Virus record (IMG/VR): IMGVR_UViG_3300022741_000065
Coordinates: 1 to 35,194 of that record
DNA length: 35,194 nt
DNA from: a virus
Lineage: Duplodnaviria; Caudoviricetes
Reading direction: 5' to 3' (one strand)
The notes beneath the pieces are model-generated. The model did no database searches and had not been told where the DNA came from. It worked only from the letters and a program-made list of their open reading frames with translations. Numbering within the stretch: position 1 is the first letter of the stretch; every line of letters begins with the position of its first letter. Shown here one piece after another: positions 3,459 through 16,757 of this stretch. A program made the position numbers and the translations under genes.

Positions 3459-4117
3459 GGCTGGGCCTCCGGGGTGTTTTCGGTGGGCGTGGTTGCCTGG
3501 GCTTCCTGCTCCTTGATGCGTTCGCTGAGCTGCTCGATGTCGCGTTCCGCTTCCCACTTCTTGATTTCGACCAGGTCAGGCGTGGGCGTCCAGAGCTGGT
3601 GCTCCATCGCCATGGAGAAGCGAGTGCCCTCGGCCTTGTCGCGGCGGTACTGTTCCACCCCCTTGGGGTCGGCGTCCTTCCATGGCACGCGCACGATGAG
3701 CAGGCCCAGCGCGGCGGAGCCGCCAATCGTCGCGCTATAGCCGCGGCCCTCGTCGATCAACACGGGGAAGTAAGAGTGCAACTGGATGTGGGGCAGGAGG
3801 CTGGAGAGCGGGAGCACGGCGGGGAGGTCGGCGACGCGCTTGCGCAGCTCGGATGTGGCCTTTGTTCTTTTGCTCGGGCAGTACAGGCCGTCTTTTCGAT
3901 TCCGCTTCCACAGGGTGGAGTCAGGAGGGAGGGCAAAGCTGACGCCCGCGAAGCTGCCATCGCGGTTGGCGTAGATATCCAGGGCGCCGACTTCCTGGGC
4001 GAAGGAGAGCAGGGTTGCCCGCCTCGCCTTGTTGTCCTCTTCGAGCTGCTTCGCCGCCTCCAGCAGCGGGCCGGAGGTGACGCGGAAATAGCGGGAGTAA
4101 ATGCTGGACATGGTCAT
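3455..4117 (-). CDS. Phage hypothetical protein (possibly P22 Eac/DUF5420-like)
   Basis: Translationally coupled ORF of 220 aa; family resemblance is from memory only. Confidence 0.55.
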   Translation of the reverse strand: MTMSSIYSRYFRVTSGPLLEAAKQLEEDNKARRATLLSFAQEVGALDIYANRDGSFAGVSFALPPDSTLWKRNRKDGLYCPSKRTKATSELRKRVADLPAVLPLSSLLPHIQLHSYFPVLIDEGRGYSATIGGSAALGLLIVRVPWKDADPKGVEQYRRDKAEGTRFSMAMEHQLWTPTPDLVEIKKWEAERDIEQLSERIKEQEAQATTPTENTPEAQP

Positions 4118-4302
4118 GCCCTCAGATAGGTTTTGTTCAGATCGATGGGGGCGATGCGGCCGTTCTCGCGGACGGGGATCACCAGCGGTCGGGGGAAGGT
4201 GGAGCGCAGGGGCTTCATCGGCGGGGCTTCGATCGTGGTGAGCACGATGGGCTTGGGGCGCGACGAGTCGTGGGGCTTGCGTTTGGTCTGCTTCGTGCTC
4301 AC
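4114..4302 (-). CDS. Small hypothetical protein
   Basis: GTGA/ATGA overlaps on both sides, GGAGG RBS. Confidence 0.55.
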   Translation of the reverse strand: MSTKQTKRKPHDSSRPKPIVLTTIEAPPMKPLRSTFPRPLVIPVRENGRIAPIDLNKTYLRA

Positions 4303-4610
4303 GGCTGGGCCTCCTGCAGGGGGATGTCGGCATCGCGGCGAACAAGGGCTGTCATGTGGACCTGGCCGTTGGCAATCTCGACATTGCCGAGGCAGTGGGA
4401 GTAGCTGCCAGTCAAGGGGGAGTGCATCGGACTGGTGAGCATGACGATGCGGCCGAGGAGGTCGGCGAGGTCTTCGAAGCCTTGCACTTCGTCGGCGAAC
4501 TGCAGCGCCGCGTGGTACGTGTCGTCATCTTCGCCGGCGAAGCGCTCGGGGTAGATGGCCTGCAGGAGGTCGAACATTTCGAGCTCGTCGAGGGGCTTGA
4601 TGGTCTTCAT
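4299..4610 (-). CDS. Hypothetical phage protein
   Basis: 103-aa acidic ORF coupled to its neighbours. Confidence 0.7.
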   Translation of the reverse strand: MKTIKPLDELEMFDLLQAIYPERFAGEDDDTYHAALQFADEVQGFEDLADLLGRIVMLTSPMHSPLTGSYSHCLGNVEIANGQVHMTALVRRDADIPLQEAQP

Positions 4611-11786: not shown

Positions 11787-12182
11787 ATGAAGGTTTTGCA
11801 GGGCGTAGTTTTTGCCATGGGGCTGGCCGCGATAGGAGCTCAGGCCGCAGACCCGAAAGTACCGGAGGCGACGCATAAGGCCCTGCAGCCGTGGAAGCCG
11901 GTGTCAGTTACGGCGACGGTGGATCAGCTGCAAGTGATCCTTCCGCAAGATCGAGTGACCGAGCAGACCTTTGCAAGCGTGGTGAGTGCGCTTTGTGATT
12001 CCGTTCGCGGTGCGAAGCCACACTGGCCGGCGCTGGCGCGGAAAGAGGCGGTAGTGCTCAACCGCCACCGCAAGCAAGGGTATGTGCTGGATGGCGGGCT
12101 GGTGGAGACATGCGCCGAGGAAGGGGAGGTTACGGCGGGCGACCGGCCCCTGTTCCTTGCCGCCCGCACGCGACTCTTTTGA
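11787..12182 (+). CDS. Secreted/periplasmic hypothetical protein
   Basis: Sec signal MKVLQGVVFAMGLAAIGAQA-A, AAGGGG RBS, two Cys. Confidence 0.75.
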   Translation: MKVLQGVVFAMGLAAIGAQAADPKVPEATHKALQPWKPVSVTATVDQLQVILPQDRVTEQTFASVVSALCDSVRGAKPHWPALARKEAVVLNRHRKQGYVLDGGLVETCAEEGEVTAGDRPLFLAARTRLF

Positions 12183-12198: not shown

Positions 12199-12498
12199 AT
12201 GAGGTTGTGGGCAGGGATCTGCTCCGCGGTGGTGCTGGCGGTGGGGTGTGGCAGCGGTACGGACAGCGCGGTGGTGACGGCGGCGGAGTACGGCGAGAGC
12301 TGGCCGCTGTCGGTGCCGGAGGCCAAGCTGTATTGCAATGCCGCTGGGGAGCGCTACCTCGCGGTGGACGGCGTTACCTACGCCCTCAACGGCAAGGCCC
12401 TGGCCGCCGGCATGCAACGGCCCGATGCCGTGCTCAAGCAGGGGGCGCCCTTCACCCTTGGGGTTCTGATTGACCGGGCAGGGATGCTTTGCCCATAG
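12199..12498 (+). CDS. YebY/DUF2511-like lipoprotein
   Basis: Lipobox AVGC; YGESWPLSV...L.C...TYALNGKA...LC motif. Confidence 0.75.
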   Translation: MRLWAGICSAVVLAVGCGSGTDSAVVTAAEYGESWPLSVPEAKLYCNAAGERYLAVDGVTYALNGKALAAGMQRPDAVLKQGAPFTLGVLIDRAGMLCP

Positions 12499-12850
12499 GA
12501 GAGCCGTGCCCATAGTGCTGGTGGAACTGCGGCCCGCTCTCATTGCCGCGCGGCTTGGTGAGGCTGCATTCCCATTCCTGCATGACCGCCGCCCCTGCGT
12601 CATTGTCGTCGCGCAGGTAGCGGCGGTCCTCTTCGTAGCCCCGTAGGTAGAAGGTGGGGCCGTCCATGCCCAGCAGCTCGGCGCAGTAGAGCTTGGCAAG
12701 CGGCTCTGCGCCGCCTTGTGTTGCCTGGCCGAAGTGATACAGCTTGTATTCCCGCCAGTTGCCCCGCAGTTCGCCGCGCAGCACTTGGGGTTCCTCGCTT
12801 TTCGAGACGCGGCGGCCCCGCACGCGCATCACTCTGATTTCAACGTCCAT
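12452..12850 (-). CDS. SOS-regulated hypothetical protein (candidate antirepressor)
   Basis: 132-aa ORF whose start lies 18 nt downstream of a LexA box. Confidence 0.65.
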   Translation of the reverse strand: MDVEIRVMRVRGRRVSKSEEPQVLRGELRGNWREYKLYHFGQATQGGAEPLAKLYCAELLGMDGPTFYLRGYEEDRRYLRDDNDAGAAVMQEWECSLTKPRGNESGPQFHQHYGHGSPMGKASLPGQSEPQG

Positions 12851-12868
12851 GGTTCGAAGGGTTTGATG

Positions 12869-12884
12869 CTGTATTTGTATACAG
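12869..12884. promoter_or_regulatory. LexA (SOS) box
   Basis: CTGTATTTGTATACAG = CTGT-N8-ACAG; overlaps the -10 of a minus-strand promoter TTGAAG(12909-12904)-17-TACTGT(12886-12881). Confidence 0.88.
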
Positions 12885-13028
12885 TATCCTGCGCAGGAGG
12901 TGCCTTCAATTCCTTCTCTCCTGCGGCCGATCCGGCTGGGATATCGAGAATGTGAATTCGCCCACCGGCGTGCCTTTGGCTGCTCGCCCGCCGTTCGTCG
13001 GCACGGTTCCTGGCTGCTGGAAAATTGG

Positions 13029-13253
13029 CTATTCGGCTTTCCGTGTGGGAGCAGATTTTTGGTGGTGTGGTGCAGCCCCGTCTATGGCCGCTCCGTCAAT
13101 CTGGTTGCGTACCCATCCCCCTCCGCCAAGGAGGGCGAGTTTGTCCCGTTGCGCCAGGGTCATGCGCAGGGAAACCGTTACCGTCTTCTCCCCTTCTCTG
13201 ACCGGCTTACGGCCCTGTCCTCGACCGGCACCGCCGCGCTTTGTTTCAGTCAT
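13029..13253 (-). CDS. Small DNA-binding protein (GGAGRGQGRKP hook + RHH-like), candidate Aca regulator
   Basis: 74 aa; TGATG-coupled to the acrIF11-like gene; basic hook, then beta-strand TVSLRM and helices. Confidence 0.65.
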   Translation of the reverse strand: MTETKRGGAGRGQGRKPVREGEKTVTVSLRMTLAQRDKLALLGGGGWVRNQIDGAAIDGAAPHHQKSAPTRKAE

Positions 13254-13681
13254 CAGGCCCGTTCCAGTTCGGGCTCGCGGCCCAGCATGTCGATCATGTA
13301 GCAAGTGCCTTGTTCGTCACGCATCGAAACCCCGCGATAGCCCAGAATCTTGGCAGCCTGAGCGGTCATGGCTTGGATGTCCCAGCTCATCTCGGCCTCG
13401 CCGCAGTCATCCTTCTGAGAAAGCATGGCTTCGGCGGTTTCTTCGTCGCAGCCGAGCATTTCCATGATCTTGGCAACCAGTCCGTCCAGCTTCGAAGCGT
13501 CAGCATGGTAGAAAAGCCGGCTGGCTTCGATGATCAGATCTTCCGGAACTCCAATCTTGTAAGTGACGTAGCTGCCGGCGGTCATTACGTATTCGTTTTC
13601 GGCGAAGCACAGGAACTCACCGAACCGTCCAGACTGATCAATCTCGGTGATTTCTATTGGGCTGCTGTGGAACAGTTCCAT
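13253..13681 (-). CDS. acrIF11: AcrIF11-family anti-CRISPR ADP-ribosyltransferase
   Basis: MELFHSSPIEITEIDQSGRFG and WDIQ...LGYRGVSMRDEQGT match the recalled AcrIF11 segments MELFHGSYEEISEIRDSGVFG and WELQ...LGYTSVEMEDEHGT; alternative start at 13693. Confidence 0.85.
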   Translation of the reverse strand: MELFHSSPIEITEIDQSGRFGEFLCFAENEYVMTAGSYVTYKIGVPEDLIIEASRLFYHADASKLDGLVAKIMEMLGCDEETAEAMLSQKDDCGEAEMSWDIQAMTAQAAKILGYRGVSMRDEQGTCYMIDMLGREPELERA

Positions 13682-13712
13682 GGTTGCTCTCATGCTTGGC
13701 TATGTCTATGTT

Positions 13713-13768
13713 TGTTATTGTAGTGCAAAATCAAAAAATGTCAAGATGTTATTGTAGTGCGAAATCAA
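13713..13768. repeat. 22-bp direct repeat pair across the acrIF11 promoter
   Basis: TGTTATTGTAGTGCAAAATCAA (13713-13734) and TGTTATTGTAGTGCGAAATCAA (13747-13768), one mismatch. Confidence 0.9.
13717..13744 (-). promoter_or_regulatory. Strong sigma70 promoter of the acrIF11 operon
   Basis: Minus strand TTGACA (13744-13739), 16-bp spacer, TACAAT (13722-13717). Confidence 0.78.
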
Positions 13769-13779
13769 TGCCAGTCGCT

Positions 13780-13807
13780 GCGATGTGAAATGCCGATTTC
13801 ACATCGC
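13780..13807. repeat. Perfect 12-bp inverted repeat between the divergent acr promoters
   Basis: GCGATGTGAAAT-GCCG-ATTTCACATCGC. Confidence 0.85.
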
Positions 13808-13829
13808 TTTCCGGGTAGGGAGAAAACTA

Positions 13830-13858
13830 TTGATTATACGTTTCTAAACACGTATGAT
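13830..13858 (+). promoter_or_regulatory. Sigma70 promoter of the aca4-like operon with an internal palindromic operator
   Basis: TTGATT-17-TATGAT; ATACGT-N8-ACGTAT (13836-13855) spans the spacer and -10. Confidence 0.8.
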
Positions 13859-13906
13859 CTGTTTCGTGGATGCGGTTAGCATTCACCCGGCCCGGCGGCT
13901 CCGGAG

Positions 13907-13938
13907 GTCGCGCCCCCAGCGGGCGAGGGGAATCAGAA
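13907..13938 (+). ncRNA. Solitary type I-C CRISPR-repeat-like unit (candidate Racr or Cas5-responsive leader)
   Basis: GTCGCGCCCCCAGCGGGCGAGGGGAATCAGAA versus the recalled I-C repeat GTCGCGCCCnnnnnGGGCGCGTGGATTGAAAC; CGCCC/GGGCG stem retained. Confidence 0.5.
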
Positions 13939-14250
13939 ATGGTCAAGATCATCAGCAGTCAGCACTTCCTTGATGACGAGATAGTGCAGTCCAAGGTGGA
14001 TGCGGCTGATTTCGTAGTGACGTTGTCGCCTGTGTTCGAGGTGGAAGGGGTTGTGGTTCAGGTTGTTCTGGATGGACACCATTCCTTCGCCGCTGCGCAG
14101 CGCGTGGGTGTAGAGCCGGAGTACGAAGTTGCTACCGTGCAGACCAATGACGCCATCAACCTCATTGCAGCAGATCCGGTTTCTTTCCTTGAAGCGGTCT
14201 GGGTGGATGGCGATTACTACGACGTGATCAACGGAGGTGATGTGTGGTGA
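13939..14250 (+). CDS. Small acidic ParB/Srx-like protein, candidate anti-defence gene
   Basis: VLDGHHSFAAA ParB-like motif; 103 aa; first gene of the operon ending in the aca4-like gene. Confidence 0.75.
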   Translation: MVKIISSQHFLDDEIVQSKVDAADFVVTLSPVFEVEGVVVQVVLDGHHSFAAAQRVGVEPEYEVATVQTNDAINLIAADPVSFLEAVWVDGDYYDVINGGDVW

Positions 14251-14579
14251 CTGACTACAGCGAAGAGCAACTCGGGGATATCCGGGTTCAGCCGCTCAAT
14301 TCGAAAACCAAAGGGCGTTTCAGCTTGGTGGTGGTTCAGCCGTCGAGCAATGAGCAGTTGCTGTTGCTTGAGCCTTGCGACTGGGACGTAGGCCGAGCGC
14401 GGGTTGTCTCGATGGTACGTGCTGGCGTAGATCCGGCGGACATCCGCTTTTCGTGGCGGGGTGATGGTCAGCTGAATACAGACGGCCTCCCGCTTCGCCC
14501 GTGCATGGAAGCGTTGTGGTGGACCGAGCGCGACCAGCGGCTGTTGGACAAGGAGCGGGAGGCTGAAAATGTCGGCTAG
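14244..14579 (+). CDS. Hypothetical protein, candidate Acr
   Basis: GGAGG RBS, overlaps the upstream stop; start at 14244 or 14247. Confidence 0.7.
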   Translation: MVTDYSEEQLGDIRVQPLNSKTKGRFSLVVVQPSSNEQLLLLEPCDWDVGRARVVSMVRAGVDPADIRFSWRGDGQLNTDGLPLRPCMEALWWTERDQRLLDKEREAENVG

Positions 14580-14859
14580 GTCGCTCACCATCAATCAGCG
14601 GCTGGGGAAAGCCAAGTCGTCAGCAGTCCGGCAGGAAATAGCCCAGGACTGGACGCGTAATTGGCACCAGGACCAGCGCCAGGCGGTGGAACTGCTTCTC
14701 CGCGCCATTGCCGTGCAGGATTGGCGCGAGGCGAGGTTCGCGGCGGATCAACTCGCAGGCATTACAGAGAAGAGGTTTTCTGCTCTGCCGCGAGTATTCG
14801 CCCAGGTAGGTGAAGTGCTGCCGCCTCCTGGAGCGCGGGCGGATGCCGATGACAGCTGA
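14569..14859 (+). CDS. Hypothetical helical protein, candidate Acr
   Basis: GGAGG RBS; 96 aa; directly upstream of the aca4-like gene. Confidence 0.7.
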   Translation: MSARSLTINQRLGKAKSSAVRQEIAQDWTRNWHQDQRQAVELLLRAIAVQDWREARFAADQLAGITEKRFSALPRVFAQVGEVLPPPGARADADDS

Positions 14860-15055
14860 GCAATTCGCTGCGTTGGCGACGCTGCTGCGCATGCGTGGCC
14901 CCTCACGGGAAGGGGCACGGCTTGTTCTCGTGGATGGGGTAGCGCCGTCTGCCGCGGCGAGGCAGGCGGGGGCCTTGCCCCAATCGGTCAGCGATGCGGT
15001 ACGCCGATGCCGCCGGGGACTTGATCTTGCGAGGCAGGCTGCGGGCTGCGGCTAG
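14843..15055 (+). CDS. aca4: Anti-CRISPR-associated HTH protein, Aca4-like (TrfB/KorA-type)
   Basis: MTAEQFAALATLLRMRGPSREGARLVLVDG...AAARQAG...QSVSDAVRRCRRGLDLA matches the recalled Aca4 MTEEQFSALAELMRLRGGPGEDAARLVLVNG...CRRGIELA. Confidence 0.85.
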   Translation: MPMTAEQFAALATLLRMRGPSREGARLVLVDGVAPSAAARQAGALPQSVSDAVRRCRRGLDLARQAAGCG

Positions 15056-15405
15056 GGGAGGTGCCCGAAGGGGAGGTCTTTGAAAATCTCGGCCTCCCCG
15101 ACGCCCCGCCGCTTTCCCTGCGCATTCTTTGTACTGCGGTTCATCTGGGGCGAAGGTGCAGGCTTGGGCTTCCTTGGTGTGAGGGCCTTGCGTAATTTCA
15201 CCAGCCGCGCAATTGCCTTGGCCTCGGGAAGTGTTGCAAGCAGCAGCAGCTCAAGAACAGATTCAGGTATCCGCCGGCCTTCTCTCTCGAAGCGGCTCCC
15301 ACCGCTCTGCGTGATCTTGAGTGCTTCCCAAAACTCAGCCTGAGTCAGATTCCGTGCGAGACGGATTTCTTTCGCTCGTGATCCCGTCAGACGTTCAACT
15401 TTCAT
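15052..15405 (-). CDS. XRE-family HTH regulator
   Basis: IRLARNLTQAEFWEALKITQSGGSRFE motif; 117 aa. Confidence 0.8.
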   Translation of the reverse strand: MKVERLTGSRAKEIRLARNLTQAEFWEALKITQSGGSRFEREGRRIPESVLELLLLATLPEAKAIARLVKLRKALTPRKPKPAPSPQMNRSTKNAQGKRRGVGEAEIFKDLPFGHLP

Positions 15406-15473
15406 GATGTATGAGTTCTGAAATATGACGCCGACCGCAATGGTAGCGTGCGGCCGAGCTGACGGGTAGGGCT

Positions 15474-16757
15474 TCAATCCGGCAATTCGCGCACCAGCAC
15501 TTCCAGCTCCATCGTAGTGGTGAGGCCCTGGCCATTGAGGCGGTGGGTGAGGCGGGCGATGATCCATTCCGCGCTGTCGATCTGGGGCTTCCAGCCGCTG
15601 GCCTTCACGGGTAGCTCGGGGATCAACTCCGGGCGCCCCTCGGCCAGGGTGATCTCGAAGCTGGCGACGCCGCGCTGCAGGCGTTGCCACTCGGCGCGGG
15701 CGGCGCGCTCGGCGTTGGCTTTGGTGGCGTAAGTGTGGCGCAGCACCTTGAGCCCGGTGGCGCTGGGCTCGGTGACGGCGGGCGGCTCGGGCAGCTTGTC
15801 GCTGCCGGCCAGCTCTGTGCCGCTCTTGCCGCCTTTCTTCTCCTTCCAGCTGACGCGCACGCCGGTGTGGGCGCGCTTATTGCCCTCGCGCTGGATCTTC
15901 TCCCACTCGTTGCGGGCACGTCGCGCGGCGGCCTTCTGGGTCGTGTAGACGTGGGTGATGACGCGCACGCCGCCGCTGCCGGGGGCCGGAGTGGGGTCTT
16001 CGTTGATGCCTTCGCCGACGAGCACGCTTTCGCGCGTGCCCTTTTTGGTGTCATGCCAGTAGGCGCGCACGCCGGTGTAGCTGTTGCGGTCTGCCACGGA
16101 GAAGGTGTGGCTGTCGCCGCTGGCGCGGGTGATGGTGACCGACTCCAGGGCCTTGCCGCTGGCGGTGATGGCATGGCCGATGGGGGTGAGCAGCAGCTTG
16201 GCGGCCTTGACGGCGGCGAGGCTGTCGAAGTCCCGCGCAAGGCGCGTGAGGAAGCTGATATCGCTCTCGTCGGTCTGGTCGATATGGGGCACGGCCACAT
16301 CGTCCAGGGCCTTGGCGATGACGGCGGCCAAGGCGTTGCGGCTGGCGATGGCGCGGACGATGGCGCCCAGGGTGGTGTCATGCCAGCTCTGCTCACGCTT
16401 GGCGGTGAGAGTGTCGCGTAGATCCGCCGAGGTGGCGCGGATTGTGAGCTGGTCAGGCGGGCCGGTGTGGGTGGTTTCGGCTACGGTGTAGCGGCCTTTG
16501 TCTTCCAGCGGCAGGCCATCCCAGCCCAGAGCGATGCGGATTTCGGCGCCGCGCGGGGGCAGGTCCAGCGAGCCGTCTGTGTCGTCGAGGGTGATATCCA
16601 GCTGATCCGCCTCTCCGCCGCGGTTGTCGGTGAGGGTGAGGTCGATGAGGCGGTTGTCCACCAGGTGGGTGATGTCGCGGCCGGCGACGCTGAGGCGGAA
16701 GGCGGGGCGGCGGGGCAGGGTGATCTGCCCGATGGCGCTGGCGGCGGGCTGGATCAT
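15474..16757 (-). CDS. D: Baseplate hub / late control protein D
   Basis: LTLTDNRGGEADQLDITLDD, KREQSWH, HIDQTDESD motifs; P2 gene order. Confidence 0.93.
   Translation of the reverse strand: MIQPAASAIGQITLPRRPAFRLSVAGRDITHLVDNRLIDLTLTDNRGGEADQLDITLDDTDGSLDLPPRGAEIRIALGWDGLPLEDKGRYTVAETTHTGPPDQLTIRATSADLRDTLTAKREQSWHDTTLGAIVRAIASRNALAAVIAKALDDVAVPHIDQTDESDISFLTRLARDFDSLAAVKAAKLLLTPIGHAITASGKALESVTITRASGDSHTFSVADRNSYTGVRAYWHDTKKGTRESVLVGEGINEDPTPAPGSGGVRVITHVYTTQKAAARRARNEWEKIQREGNKRAHTGVRVSWKEKKGGKSGTELAGSDKLPEPPAVTEPSATGLKVLRHTYATKANAERAARAEWQRLQRGVASFEITLAEGRPELIPELPVKASGWKPQIDSAEWIIARLTHRLNGQGLTTTMELEVLVRELPD

Follow-up and report, generated by a model that had tools for sequence, protein, structure and literature searches.

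Two divergent operons, one carrying acrIF11 and the other ending in an Aca4 homologue, form a predicted counter-defence island in a P2-like prophage

AcrIF11_Pae2 (PDB 8DWQ) is an anti-CRISPR (Acr) protein that ADP-ribosylates Csy1, and its H20A/Y46A and D146A/E147A mutants are inactive (bioRxiv 10.1101/2024.08.26.609590, accessible text). Genes of this kind have been described together with anti-CRISPR-associated (Aca) regulators: Aca7 acts on acrIF11-aca7 (PMC12658196, accessible text), and the cargo of acr-aca4 operons, whose regulator is Aca4 (WP_071533911.1), includes acrIF11, acrIF12, acrIC6 and acrIE9. The mean identity of Aca4 homologues to the reference is 72% when they are linked to an acr gene and 42% when they are solo (PMC9410906, accessible text). 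A third regulator, Aca14 of Pasteurella multocida, is an anti-CRISPR-associated repressor of the ribbon-helix-helix (RHH) type (bioRxiv 10.64898/2026.07.27.740549; PMC13551039, both in their accessible text). The protein carries a long helical extension, and its operator, as read from the oligonucleotides in the supplement, is an AT-rich inverted repeat of the form 9-2-9; the main partners of Aca14 are AcrIF23, AcrIF6 and AcrVA3, and acrIF11 is not mentioned in the main text (PMC13551039). Here we describe an island of two operons that combines acrIF11, a homologue of Aca4 and a putative RHH regulator. It lies within a 35,194-base stretch of viral DNA (the window), which is the entire provirus record IMGVR_UViG_3300022741_000065. 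The features are listed in Table 1, and locus numbers such as L256 refer to the comparison loci that we fetched.

We consider the island to consist of two back-to-back operons that encode AcrIF11 and three likely counter-defence proteins, each operon probably being shut off by the product of its own last gene; we give this reading a probability of about 0.72. The slot between gene D and the immunity region of what we take to be a P2-like prophage holds a real acr island, made largely of known parts. The leftward operon comprises acrIF11 and a basic 74-residue gene, whose start overlaps the acrIF11 stop as TGATG; the two are translationally coupled. The rightward operon comprises three overlapping open reading frames (ORFs) followed by an Aca4-like helix-turn-helix (HTH) gene. 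Both operons are read out of an AT-rich spacer (38% GC in its core, 13694-13860, against 58% in the island and 67% in the rest of the window). The spacer contains the two divergent near-consensus promoters of the original prediction, and these are the only two sigma-70-like promoters found between 11500 and 17000 (mean in shuffled sequence, 0.9). A small gene for a predicted DNA-binding protein does end each operon, as had been claimed, with the correction that the one on the left looks RHH-type and not like an HTH Aca.

The proposed sequence of events is as follows. On entry of the DNA, both promoters would fire unrepressed. AcrIF11 would ADP-ribosylate Csy1/Cas8f, as shown for the 60%-identical Pae2 protein, while the ParB/sulfiredoxin(Srx)-fold protein of the rightward operon would most likely bind a nucleotide or a partner with an acidic surface. 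As the RHH protein accumulates, it would occupy two sites that are in phase, one over the left promoter and one upstream of it, and close that promoter; Aca4 would bind an 18-bp repeat in the right promoter and close that one.

The assignment of acrIF11 is confirmed. The PDB sequence matches of its product are 8DWQ (E 4e-54) and 6KYF, AcrIF11_Pae1 (E 2.4e-9), and it is approximately 60% identical to AcrIF11_Pae2. Residues H5, S7, E10, Y31, D122 and E123 align with H20, S22, E25, Y46, D146 and E147 of Pae2; all six residues that were mutated in AcrIF11_Pae2 are present, including the NAD-site H/Y pair and the catalytic D/E pair that are needed for activity. By these sequence comparisons the protein belongs to the AcrIF11 family, and we predict it to be an inhibitor of the type I-F CRISPR complex of the host. 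It differs from Pae2 and Pae1 in that an acidic loop in the helical region is nine residues shorter, and in that its gene is followed by an RHH-like gene and not by an HTH gene.

Among 34 viral acrIF11 loci, eight have an Aca4-profile gene immediately 3′ of acrIF11, which confirms the known pairing of the two; in the window they sit in opposite operons. In another of the 34 (L256), acrIF11 is directly followed by a distant member of the 74-residue family (hidden Markov model E 1.9e-5; hhalign 94.3%), its promoter being cut off. This makes a second acrIF11-RHH pair besides the window, where the terminal regulator is co-transcribed with the acr gene. Small genes that do not look like HTH genes, and appear RHH-like by eye, also lie 3′ of acrIF11 in L242-L246, L252 and L258-L263, with distinct promoter repeats in those loci that we inspected. 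They are candidates for further Aca families.

The 74-residue product of the leftward operon has no match in Pfam or PHROGs, and NCBIfam gave only chance matches below threshold. Its family is nevertheless large: of 241 candidate sequences, 236 proved to be close homologues, and at E<=0.001 the family has 1056 cluster representatives (clustering at 50% identity). The alignment shows an invariant arm, RGG.GRGQGRKP, followed by the alternating stretch TVTVSLR and a pair of short helices. The AlphaFold2 model places helices at residues 33-42 and 45-54 and none before residue 33, a region of low confidence. When this model was compared with known structures, all 19 rows at Z>=2 were RHH-type chains (Z 2.0-2.7), among them PutA52, Arc, ParG and NikR; several titles state the fold, and for the other rows we presume it. 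The nearest named Atlas clusters are RHH_1, CcdA, RHH_3 and NikA-like. The fold is therefore likely on the strength of the model, though not proven, because Z is at most 2.7 and the Atlas scores of 0.86-0.88 are a lead only. Foldseek returned no match to the model, and the predicted homodimer scored 0.40 against a mark of 0.42 and was not used as evidence. PDB sequence searches with the protein and its profile found no regulator, and tblastn with the protein found nothing among annotated phages or plasmids. An assignment to Aca10 was considered and dropped, the PDB sequence searches giving it no support. Within literature that took in few subscription papers, we found none pairing a ribbon-helix-helix protein with acrIF11, and the family appears to be undescribed.

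The original prediction placed a repeat motif over each promoter and supposed that the two operons were regulated separately. On the left, both points are well supported by the co-occurrence of operator and gene. We fetched 85 RHH loci (5 from genomes, 80 viral); 16 whose upstream sequence was shorter than 350 bases or a duplicate were set aside, which left 69. Of these, 52 have the 19-mer of the window upstream of the RHH gene at 15 or more of 19 positions, compared to 1 of 65 downstream controls; at 13 or more of 19 the counts are 56 and 5. The consensus of the family operator is TTTGATtgCGCaCTACAATA. All 27 close double sites in the related loci are spaced either 34-36 bp (20 of them) or 44-46 bp (7) apart, two classes that differ by one helical turn, and the distal copy contains no -10 hexamer. 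Because the spacings are fixed and the distal copy lacks a -10 hexamer, we regard the motif as an operator rather than as mere conservation of a promoter. Scanning the viral collection with the exact motif gave 23 matches, 19 of which have an RHH gene downstream on the same strand. These 19 contigs had also been found by protein, and the scan therefore speaks for specificity and adds no new loci. The other four matches have neither an RHH gene nor a TTGAC-type -35 box, and look like chance.

Between operator and regulator, the RHH loci carry 62 small ORFs in 44 families with a median length of 60 residues. Their charge is mixed, with a predicted isoelectric point (pI) below 5.5 in 22 of the 62 and above 9 in 21. 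None of these ORFs was seen under another regulator in the comparison loci searched for them.

The leftward regulator resembles Aca14 in its small size and probable RHH fold, and in standing last in an acr operon whose cargo varies and whose predicted operator covers the -10 box. The two differ at both the protein and the DNA level (PMC13551039, accessible text). In place of a long helical extension, the 74-residue family has its invariant Gly/Arg/Pro arm at the N-terminus, and a short GG turn between the helices. In place of a 9-2-9 operator, it has paired imperfect TTG-N2-TGCGCA-N3-CAA sites at the two spacings given above, and its consensus is unlike the aca14 promoter oligonucleotides. The comparison with the Aca14 proteins was made by eye, so that some overlap between the families is possible. 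Judging from sequence, the 74-residue gene is probably a new Aca-type autorepressor, distinct from Aca14.

In the rightward operon, the predicted homology of the last gene to Aca4 holds: 34 of 67 residues are identical to the reference printed in the supplement of PMC9410906, counted by hand. This identity (51%) falls between the means for acr-linked and solo homologues. The protein is 55-58% identical to Aca4-like genes beside acrIF11 in L015, L016, L019 and L023; tblastn found nothing similar in phages, and a PDB sequence search returned no regulator. The operon shares with published acr-aca4 operons a putatively KorA-like terminal HTH gene, the register of an 18-bp inverted repeat, and a GC-rich leader element (PMC9410906, accessible text). 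It differs from them in its cargo of three uncharacterised genes, and in that acrIF11 lies in the opposite operon.

The repeat motif claimed for the right promoter is present, and its assignment to Aca4 is less firm than that of the left operator to the RHH protein; separate regulation is correspondingly less secure on this side. The 18-bp repeat is 14/18 self-complementary. Besides the window, 4 of 7 Aca4 promoters reach a symmetry of at least 14/18 in the same register, compared to none of 21 others. A small position weight matrix (PWM) of Aca4 operators, applied leave-one-out, scores the right promoter of the window at 1.8, above 19 of the 21 non-Aca4 promoters; the set of seven includes L254, for which a shifted -10 box was picked (score -13.8), and no promoter was found for L197. 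We consider the repeat a plausible Aca4 operator from its sequence. A stretch at the start of the transcript, CATGGAAGGC.C.G, is common to some promoters of the RHH family and to aca4 promoters (L010, L059, L071 and L013), which suggests that promoters and leaders are swapped as modules.

The first gene of the rightward operon encodes an acidic protein for which structure comparison gave ten rows, all of ParB/Srx type, the best being a sulfiredoxin (Z 5.3, rmsd 3.4 over 70 residues); the Atlas gives a TM score of 0.81 to a cluster named ParB. The motif DGHHS is present in all four aligned ParB-fold proteins, and its serine follows DGHH at what we take to be the position of the active-site arginine of the superfamily. 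That arginine is conserved in the superfamily (PMC5512222, accessible text), and we do not class the protein as an active CTPase or DNase. It is similar to ParB/Srx-fold phage conflict domains (DdrB-like ParB) in its fold and in occurring both alone and fused to head proteins, and differs from them in the serine, in its length of only 103 residues, and in its place in an Aca-type operon (PMC5512222). It is a candidate anti-defence protein.

We fetched 80 loci with ParB-fold homologues, of which 71 are non-identical: 34 are stand-alone genes, another 34 form the C-terminal part of a long ORF, and 3 lie at contig edges. The fused forms (L199, L206, L211, L221 and others) match the HI1409 family in all three cases tested, below the cut-off, and the gene after the fusion is Mu F-like in all four tested; this places the fusions in the head region. 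The HI1409 family is presumably portal-like, and the fusions suggest delivery with the virion. Stand-alone copies precede small regulators, including in L196 a gene that has an HTH match and resembles Aca1 by eye against the Aca1 list. In L159 the ParB-fold gene is less than 1 kb from acrIF11. A partnership of Aca4 and the ParB-fold gene as KorA and KorB was rejected, the ParB-fold gene having no DNA-binding domain and pairing with many other regulators.

Swapping of cassettes in the slot between gene D and the immunity region, which had been predicted, can be seen in related phages. Genes of Pae2 type in L004/L005 fill the same slot directly after gene D, together with an XRE-type HTH gene, and in another phage (L181) gene D is immediately followed by a ParB-fold gene. 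L188-190 contain the ParB-fold gene together with both orphan genes that follow it in the window, there under a different regulator with a different inverted repeat in the promoter. The 96-residue orphan is absent after the 111-residue homologue in L007 and L239, and all that L007 retains of the ParB-fold gene, ahead of that homologue, is its last 19 codons. Because the ParB-fold gene and the orphans recur under other regulators, we conclude that cargo is shuffled among Aca-type switches. The 111-residue orphan has no match in Pfam, NCBIfam or PHROGs. In L007 (approximately 4050-4310), two copies of a GC hairpin unit of about 50 bp lie between cassette remnants within an acr-like operon. The genes at L167:2822-3319 and L002:4526-5044, in ParB-fold operons, have no NCBIfam match; their products presumably resemble AcrVA3. 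L167 also encodes a divergent, longer protein with the N-terminus of the RHH family.

A number of results weigh against the reading of the island as two self-regulated counter-defence operons, all of whose functions are read from sequence and models. The scores behind the RHH fold are low (Z<=2.7, Atlas score below 0.9, pLDDT 68). The RHH motif coincides in part with the -10 hexamer, and the 69 loci lack phylogenetic independence. The RHH-like family occurs in only one of the 34 other acrIF11 loci, with the promoter there cut off. Acr models matched none of the ORFs upstream of RHH genes (0/70 in NCBIfam and Pfam, 0/59 in PHROGs, 0/2 in the PDB), a result limited by the libraries, in which AcrIF11 was the only Acr model that surfaced. 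On the right, models from Pfam, NCBIfam and PHROGs identified no known Acr among the three genes, which leaves this a candidate anti-defence operon only; the Aca4 homologue matches Pfam KORA at E 4.9e-5 and 23.9 bits, under the cut-off of 26.7. The PWM score of its operator is below those of 6 of the 7 Aca4 promoters and 2 of the 21 non-Aca4 promoters, and plain-identity scoring could not tell Aca4 loci from controls. Finally, this reading gives no role to the perfect 12-bp inverted repeat of the spacer or to the RsaL-like gene.

The RHH family could instead be an autoregulator that serves small accessory genes of phages in general, with acrIF11 as an occasional passenger and no anti-defence mark attached to the regulator. 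The want of Acr matches among its cargo, the mixed charge of that cargo and the single acrIF11 locus in 34 all agree with this. Set against them, an RHH gene stands behind a bona fide acrIF11 twice, in the window and in L256; a strong promoter, an operator, tiny variable cargo and a terminal regulator are together the acr-aca layout (PMC9410906, accessible text); and fewer than half of the genes regulated by Aca1 and Aca2 have functions assigned either (PMC13551039, accessible text). We regard this explanation as unlikely, though it is the alternative that fares best.

It is distinctly less probable that the rightward operon carries cargo for phage-versus-phage conflict or lysogenic conversion under a borrowed Aca4 switch. 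Stand-alone ParB-fold homologues lie in small regulator-terminated operons, one near acrIF11 (L159) and one with the Aca1-like gene (L196), and the GC element in the leader is common to the published acrIC6/acrIE9-aca4 operons; both points favour counter-defence cargo over this alternative. It draws on the lack of a known Acr in the operon, on the 34 of 71 homologues that are C-terminal extensions of head-region proteins, on the intermediate identity to the Aca4 reference, and on the proposal that ParB/Srx domains act against rival elements (PMC5512222, accessible text).

The original prediction also held that the island possibly targets several CRISPR types, type I-F by protein and type I-C by RNA. 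The wider claim is not borne out, since the rightward operon yielded no known Acr, and the type I-C part fails on closer inspection. Of the 28 non-loop positions of a real array repeat, 22 agree with a stretch in the leader of the rightward operon; the best score elsewhere in the window is 18. In 1.13 Mb of other loci the background does not exceed 19, leaving out one true repeat, and of 200 shuffles a single one came to 22. The likeness exceeds chance on these figures, which come from a search pattern shaped after the candidate had been seen. Its identity to seven array repeats is 24/32 ungapped and 26/34 gapped (75-76%), compared to the SRUFinder rule of at least 90% identity to a known repeat over at least 90% of its length (PMC10651486, accessible text). 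Among the positions that are invariant in all seven arrays, five that are neither in the loop nor terminal differ. C20A breaks the 7-bp stem; T22, T26, G28 and A30 differ as well, and the 3′ handle is altered. The stem energy is -9.7 kcal/mol against approximately -14, and the probability of pairing in the leader ranges from 0.02 to 0.66 depending on the ends chosen. The stretch is solitary, with one match in the window, and lies downstream of the promoter with its last bases overlapping the start codon. Neither the 71 ParB-fold loci nor the 34 acrIF11 loci contain it, the one exception being a true repeat in L204. A scan of viral sequences for the pattern gave 31 loci, all with canonical or near-canonical repeats and none of the leader type of the window. 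Rfam searched over 12500-15600 gave three chance matches and no CRISPR repeat; the CRISPR-DR5 model gave nothing in the window, and no control genome passed its cut-off either.

The stretch might still work as a mimic of the type I-C repeat, either as an RNA anti-CRISPR (Racr) or as a Cas5d site that couples translation of the operon to the type I-C status of the host. The match exceeds chance, and the stretch is solitary and closely follows a promoter at an acr locus, as many Racrs do; in this it resembles RacrIC1 and other solitary-repeat RNA anti-CRISPRs (PMC10651486, accessible text). It differs from them in its identity, in its broken stem and 3′ handle, and in lying in a 5′ leader over a start codon and not downstream of an acr gene. 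With its lack of conservation and a search pattern made to fit it, these differences led us to reject it as a Racr; judged from its sequence, a working Racr is unlikely, and the mimic in either form has little chance of being right. It is most likely a decayed repeat or a leader hairpin. In many viral contigs (L129-L158) the 1.2 kb that was fetched includes a single canonical type I-C repeat; some of these may be true solitary repeat units and others the ends of arrays. In L204 (approximately 2720-2755) the ParB-fold homologue ends abruptly at a perfect type I-C repeat (28/28) that lies on the other strand, either by recombination with a CRISPR array or through chimeric assembly.

Joint control of both promoters, by a protein such as the RsaL-like one bound to the 12-bp repeat or by a single Aca, is equally improbable: the position of that repeat between the promoters, the adjacent third HTH gene and the ability of one Aca to govern neighbouring operons (PMC13551039, accessible text) are outweighed by promoter motifs that are unrelated (the left promoter scores -11.0 on the Aca4 PWM) and that each track their own regulator in other phages, and by the absence of the 12-bp arm from related loci.

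The preferred reading, two operons each closed by its own terminal regulator, can be extended into a bolder joint proposal. The 74-residue protein would found a widespread new Aca family, and its phased double operator would be a handle for dozens of anti-defence proteins of 40-120 residues; the arginine-less ParB/Srx protein would be a counter-defence protein that is fused to head proteins elsewhere; and the decayed type I-C repeat may let host Cas5d tune the operon. Taken together these propositions are tentative, with somewhat less than an even chance. The island as a whole will not surprise a specialist, because acr-aca islands, AcrIF11, Aca4 and RHH-type Acas have already been described. 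Aca genes are a standard bait for anti-defence genes, and the useful part here is the leftward regulator: a family of 1056 representatives, with a sharp operator and 44 small cargo families in a modest sample. If some of that cargo inhibits defence, the RHH operator and gene give a testable list of candidates missed by HTH-based searches. In the ParB/Srx-fold gene there is also a concrete candidate for an inhibitor that is enzyme-like or binds nucleotides.

Table 1. Features of the island and its right border (positions in the window; aa, amino acids)
Feature	Position	Strand	Basis or remark
Whole island	13029-15405		between gene D (Phage_GPD) and the cI-like/CII-like region
RHH-like candidate Aca repressor, 74 aa, Gly/Arg-rich N-terminal arm	13029..13253	-	AlphaFold2 model; homologues
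acrIF11, 142 aa, anti-type I-F CRISPR ADP-ribosyltransferase family	13253..13681	-	NCBIfam NF052490, 152 bits (cut-off 50)
Predicted RHH operator, proximal copy	13714..13734	-	21-bp repeat, over spacer and -10
Leftward promoter TTGACA-16-TACAAT	13717..13744	-	11/12 consensus
Predicted RHH operator, distal copy	13748..13768	-	34 bp upstream; 20/21 identical to proximal copy
Perfect 12-bp inverted repeat, 4-bp centre	13780..13807	.	outside both transcripts, midway between -35 boxes
Rightward promoter TTGATT-17-TATGAT	13830..13858	+	9/12 consensus
Predicted Aca4 operator, 18-bp imperfect inverted repeat	13837..13854	.	ends in first two bases of -10
GC-rich leader element	13891..13904	+	also in published acrIC6/acrIE9-aca4 leaders and Aca4 locus L013
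Degenerate type I-C CRISPR-repeat-like stretch	13907..13940	+	over ribosome-binding site and start codon of first rightward gene
Acidic stand-alone ParB/sulfiredoxin-fold protein, 103 aa, DGHHS motif	13939..14250	+	phrog_4807; structure comparison
Acidic orphan, 111 aa, GTG start	14244..14579	+	homologues 54-70% in L007, L188-190, L239
Basic orphan, 96 aa	14569..14859	+	49% identity in L188-190, there after 111-aa gene
aca4 homologue, 68 aa, KorA/TrfB-like HTH	14849..15055	+	similarity to Aca4 reference
RsaL-like HTH gene	15052..15405	-	Pfam HTH_92, 62 bits (cut-off 27)
GC-rich hairpin without T run, just past aca4 stop	15070..15099	.	z -1.74, not significant
Tail gene D, right border of island	15474..16757	-	Pfam Phage_GPD, 67 bits; phrog_52

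Profile searches of the window identified an integrase, a primase, CII-like and cI-like regulators and tail gene D, a set that we take, from general knowledge of these genes, to represent the P2-like layout. The predicted position of the island between tail gene D and the immunity region is correct. The DNA of the primase is at best 65-66% identical to known sequences, these being Ralstonia phages, and an identical copy of the provirus is present on a 124-kb metagenome contig (L006; 0 differences in 12,333 bases). A search with the DNA of the island found no phage record and one plasmid, which matches the 111-residue orphan gene only.

A third HTH gene converging from the right had been noted, and it proves to be RsaL-like; it converges on aca4 and has the same orientation as gene D. 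No homologue of it was found in the comparison loci searched for it. The window contains two perfect inverted repeats of 12 bp, including the one in the spacer, and the arm of the latter has no second site at 11 or more of 12 positions in the window or the comparison loci searched for it.

Two small genes between cI and the island (11787-12182 and 12199-12498, both on the + strand) have N-termini that resemble signal peptides; their matches are phrog_3807 and, above cut-off, DUF2511. They are likely to be lysogenic-conversion cargo. The only CTGT-N8-ACAG box in the window, which we take to be a LexA-type motif, is at 12869-12884, 19 bp ahead of an orphan ORF of 132 residues (12452-12850, - strand), and 27 of 100 shuffled sequences contain such a box. 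The antirepressor of phage 186 is an SOS-induced gene, and the orphan ORF may likewise be induced by the SOS response.

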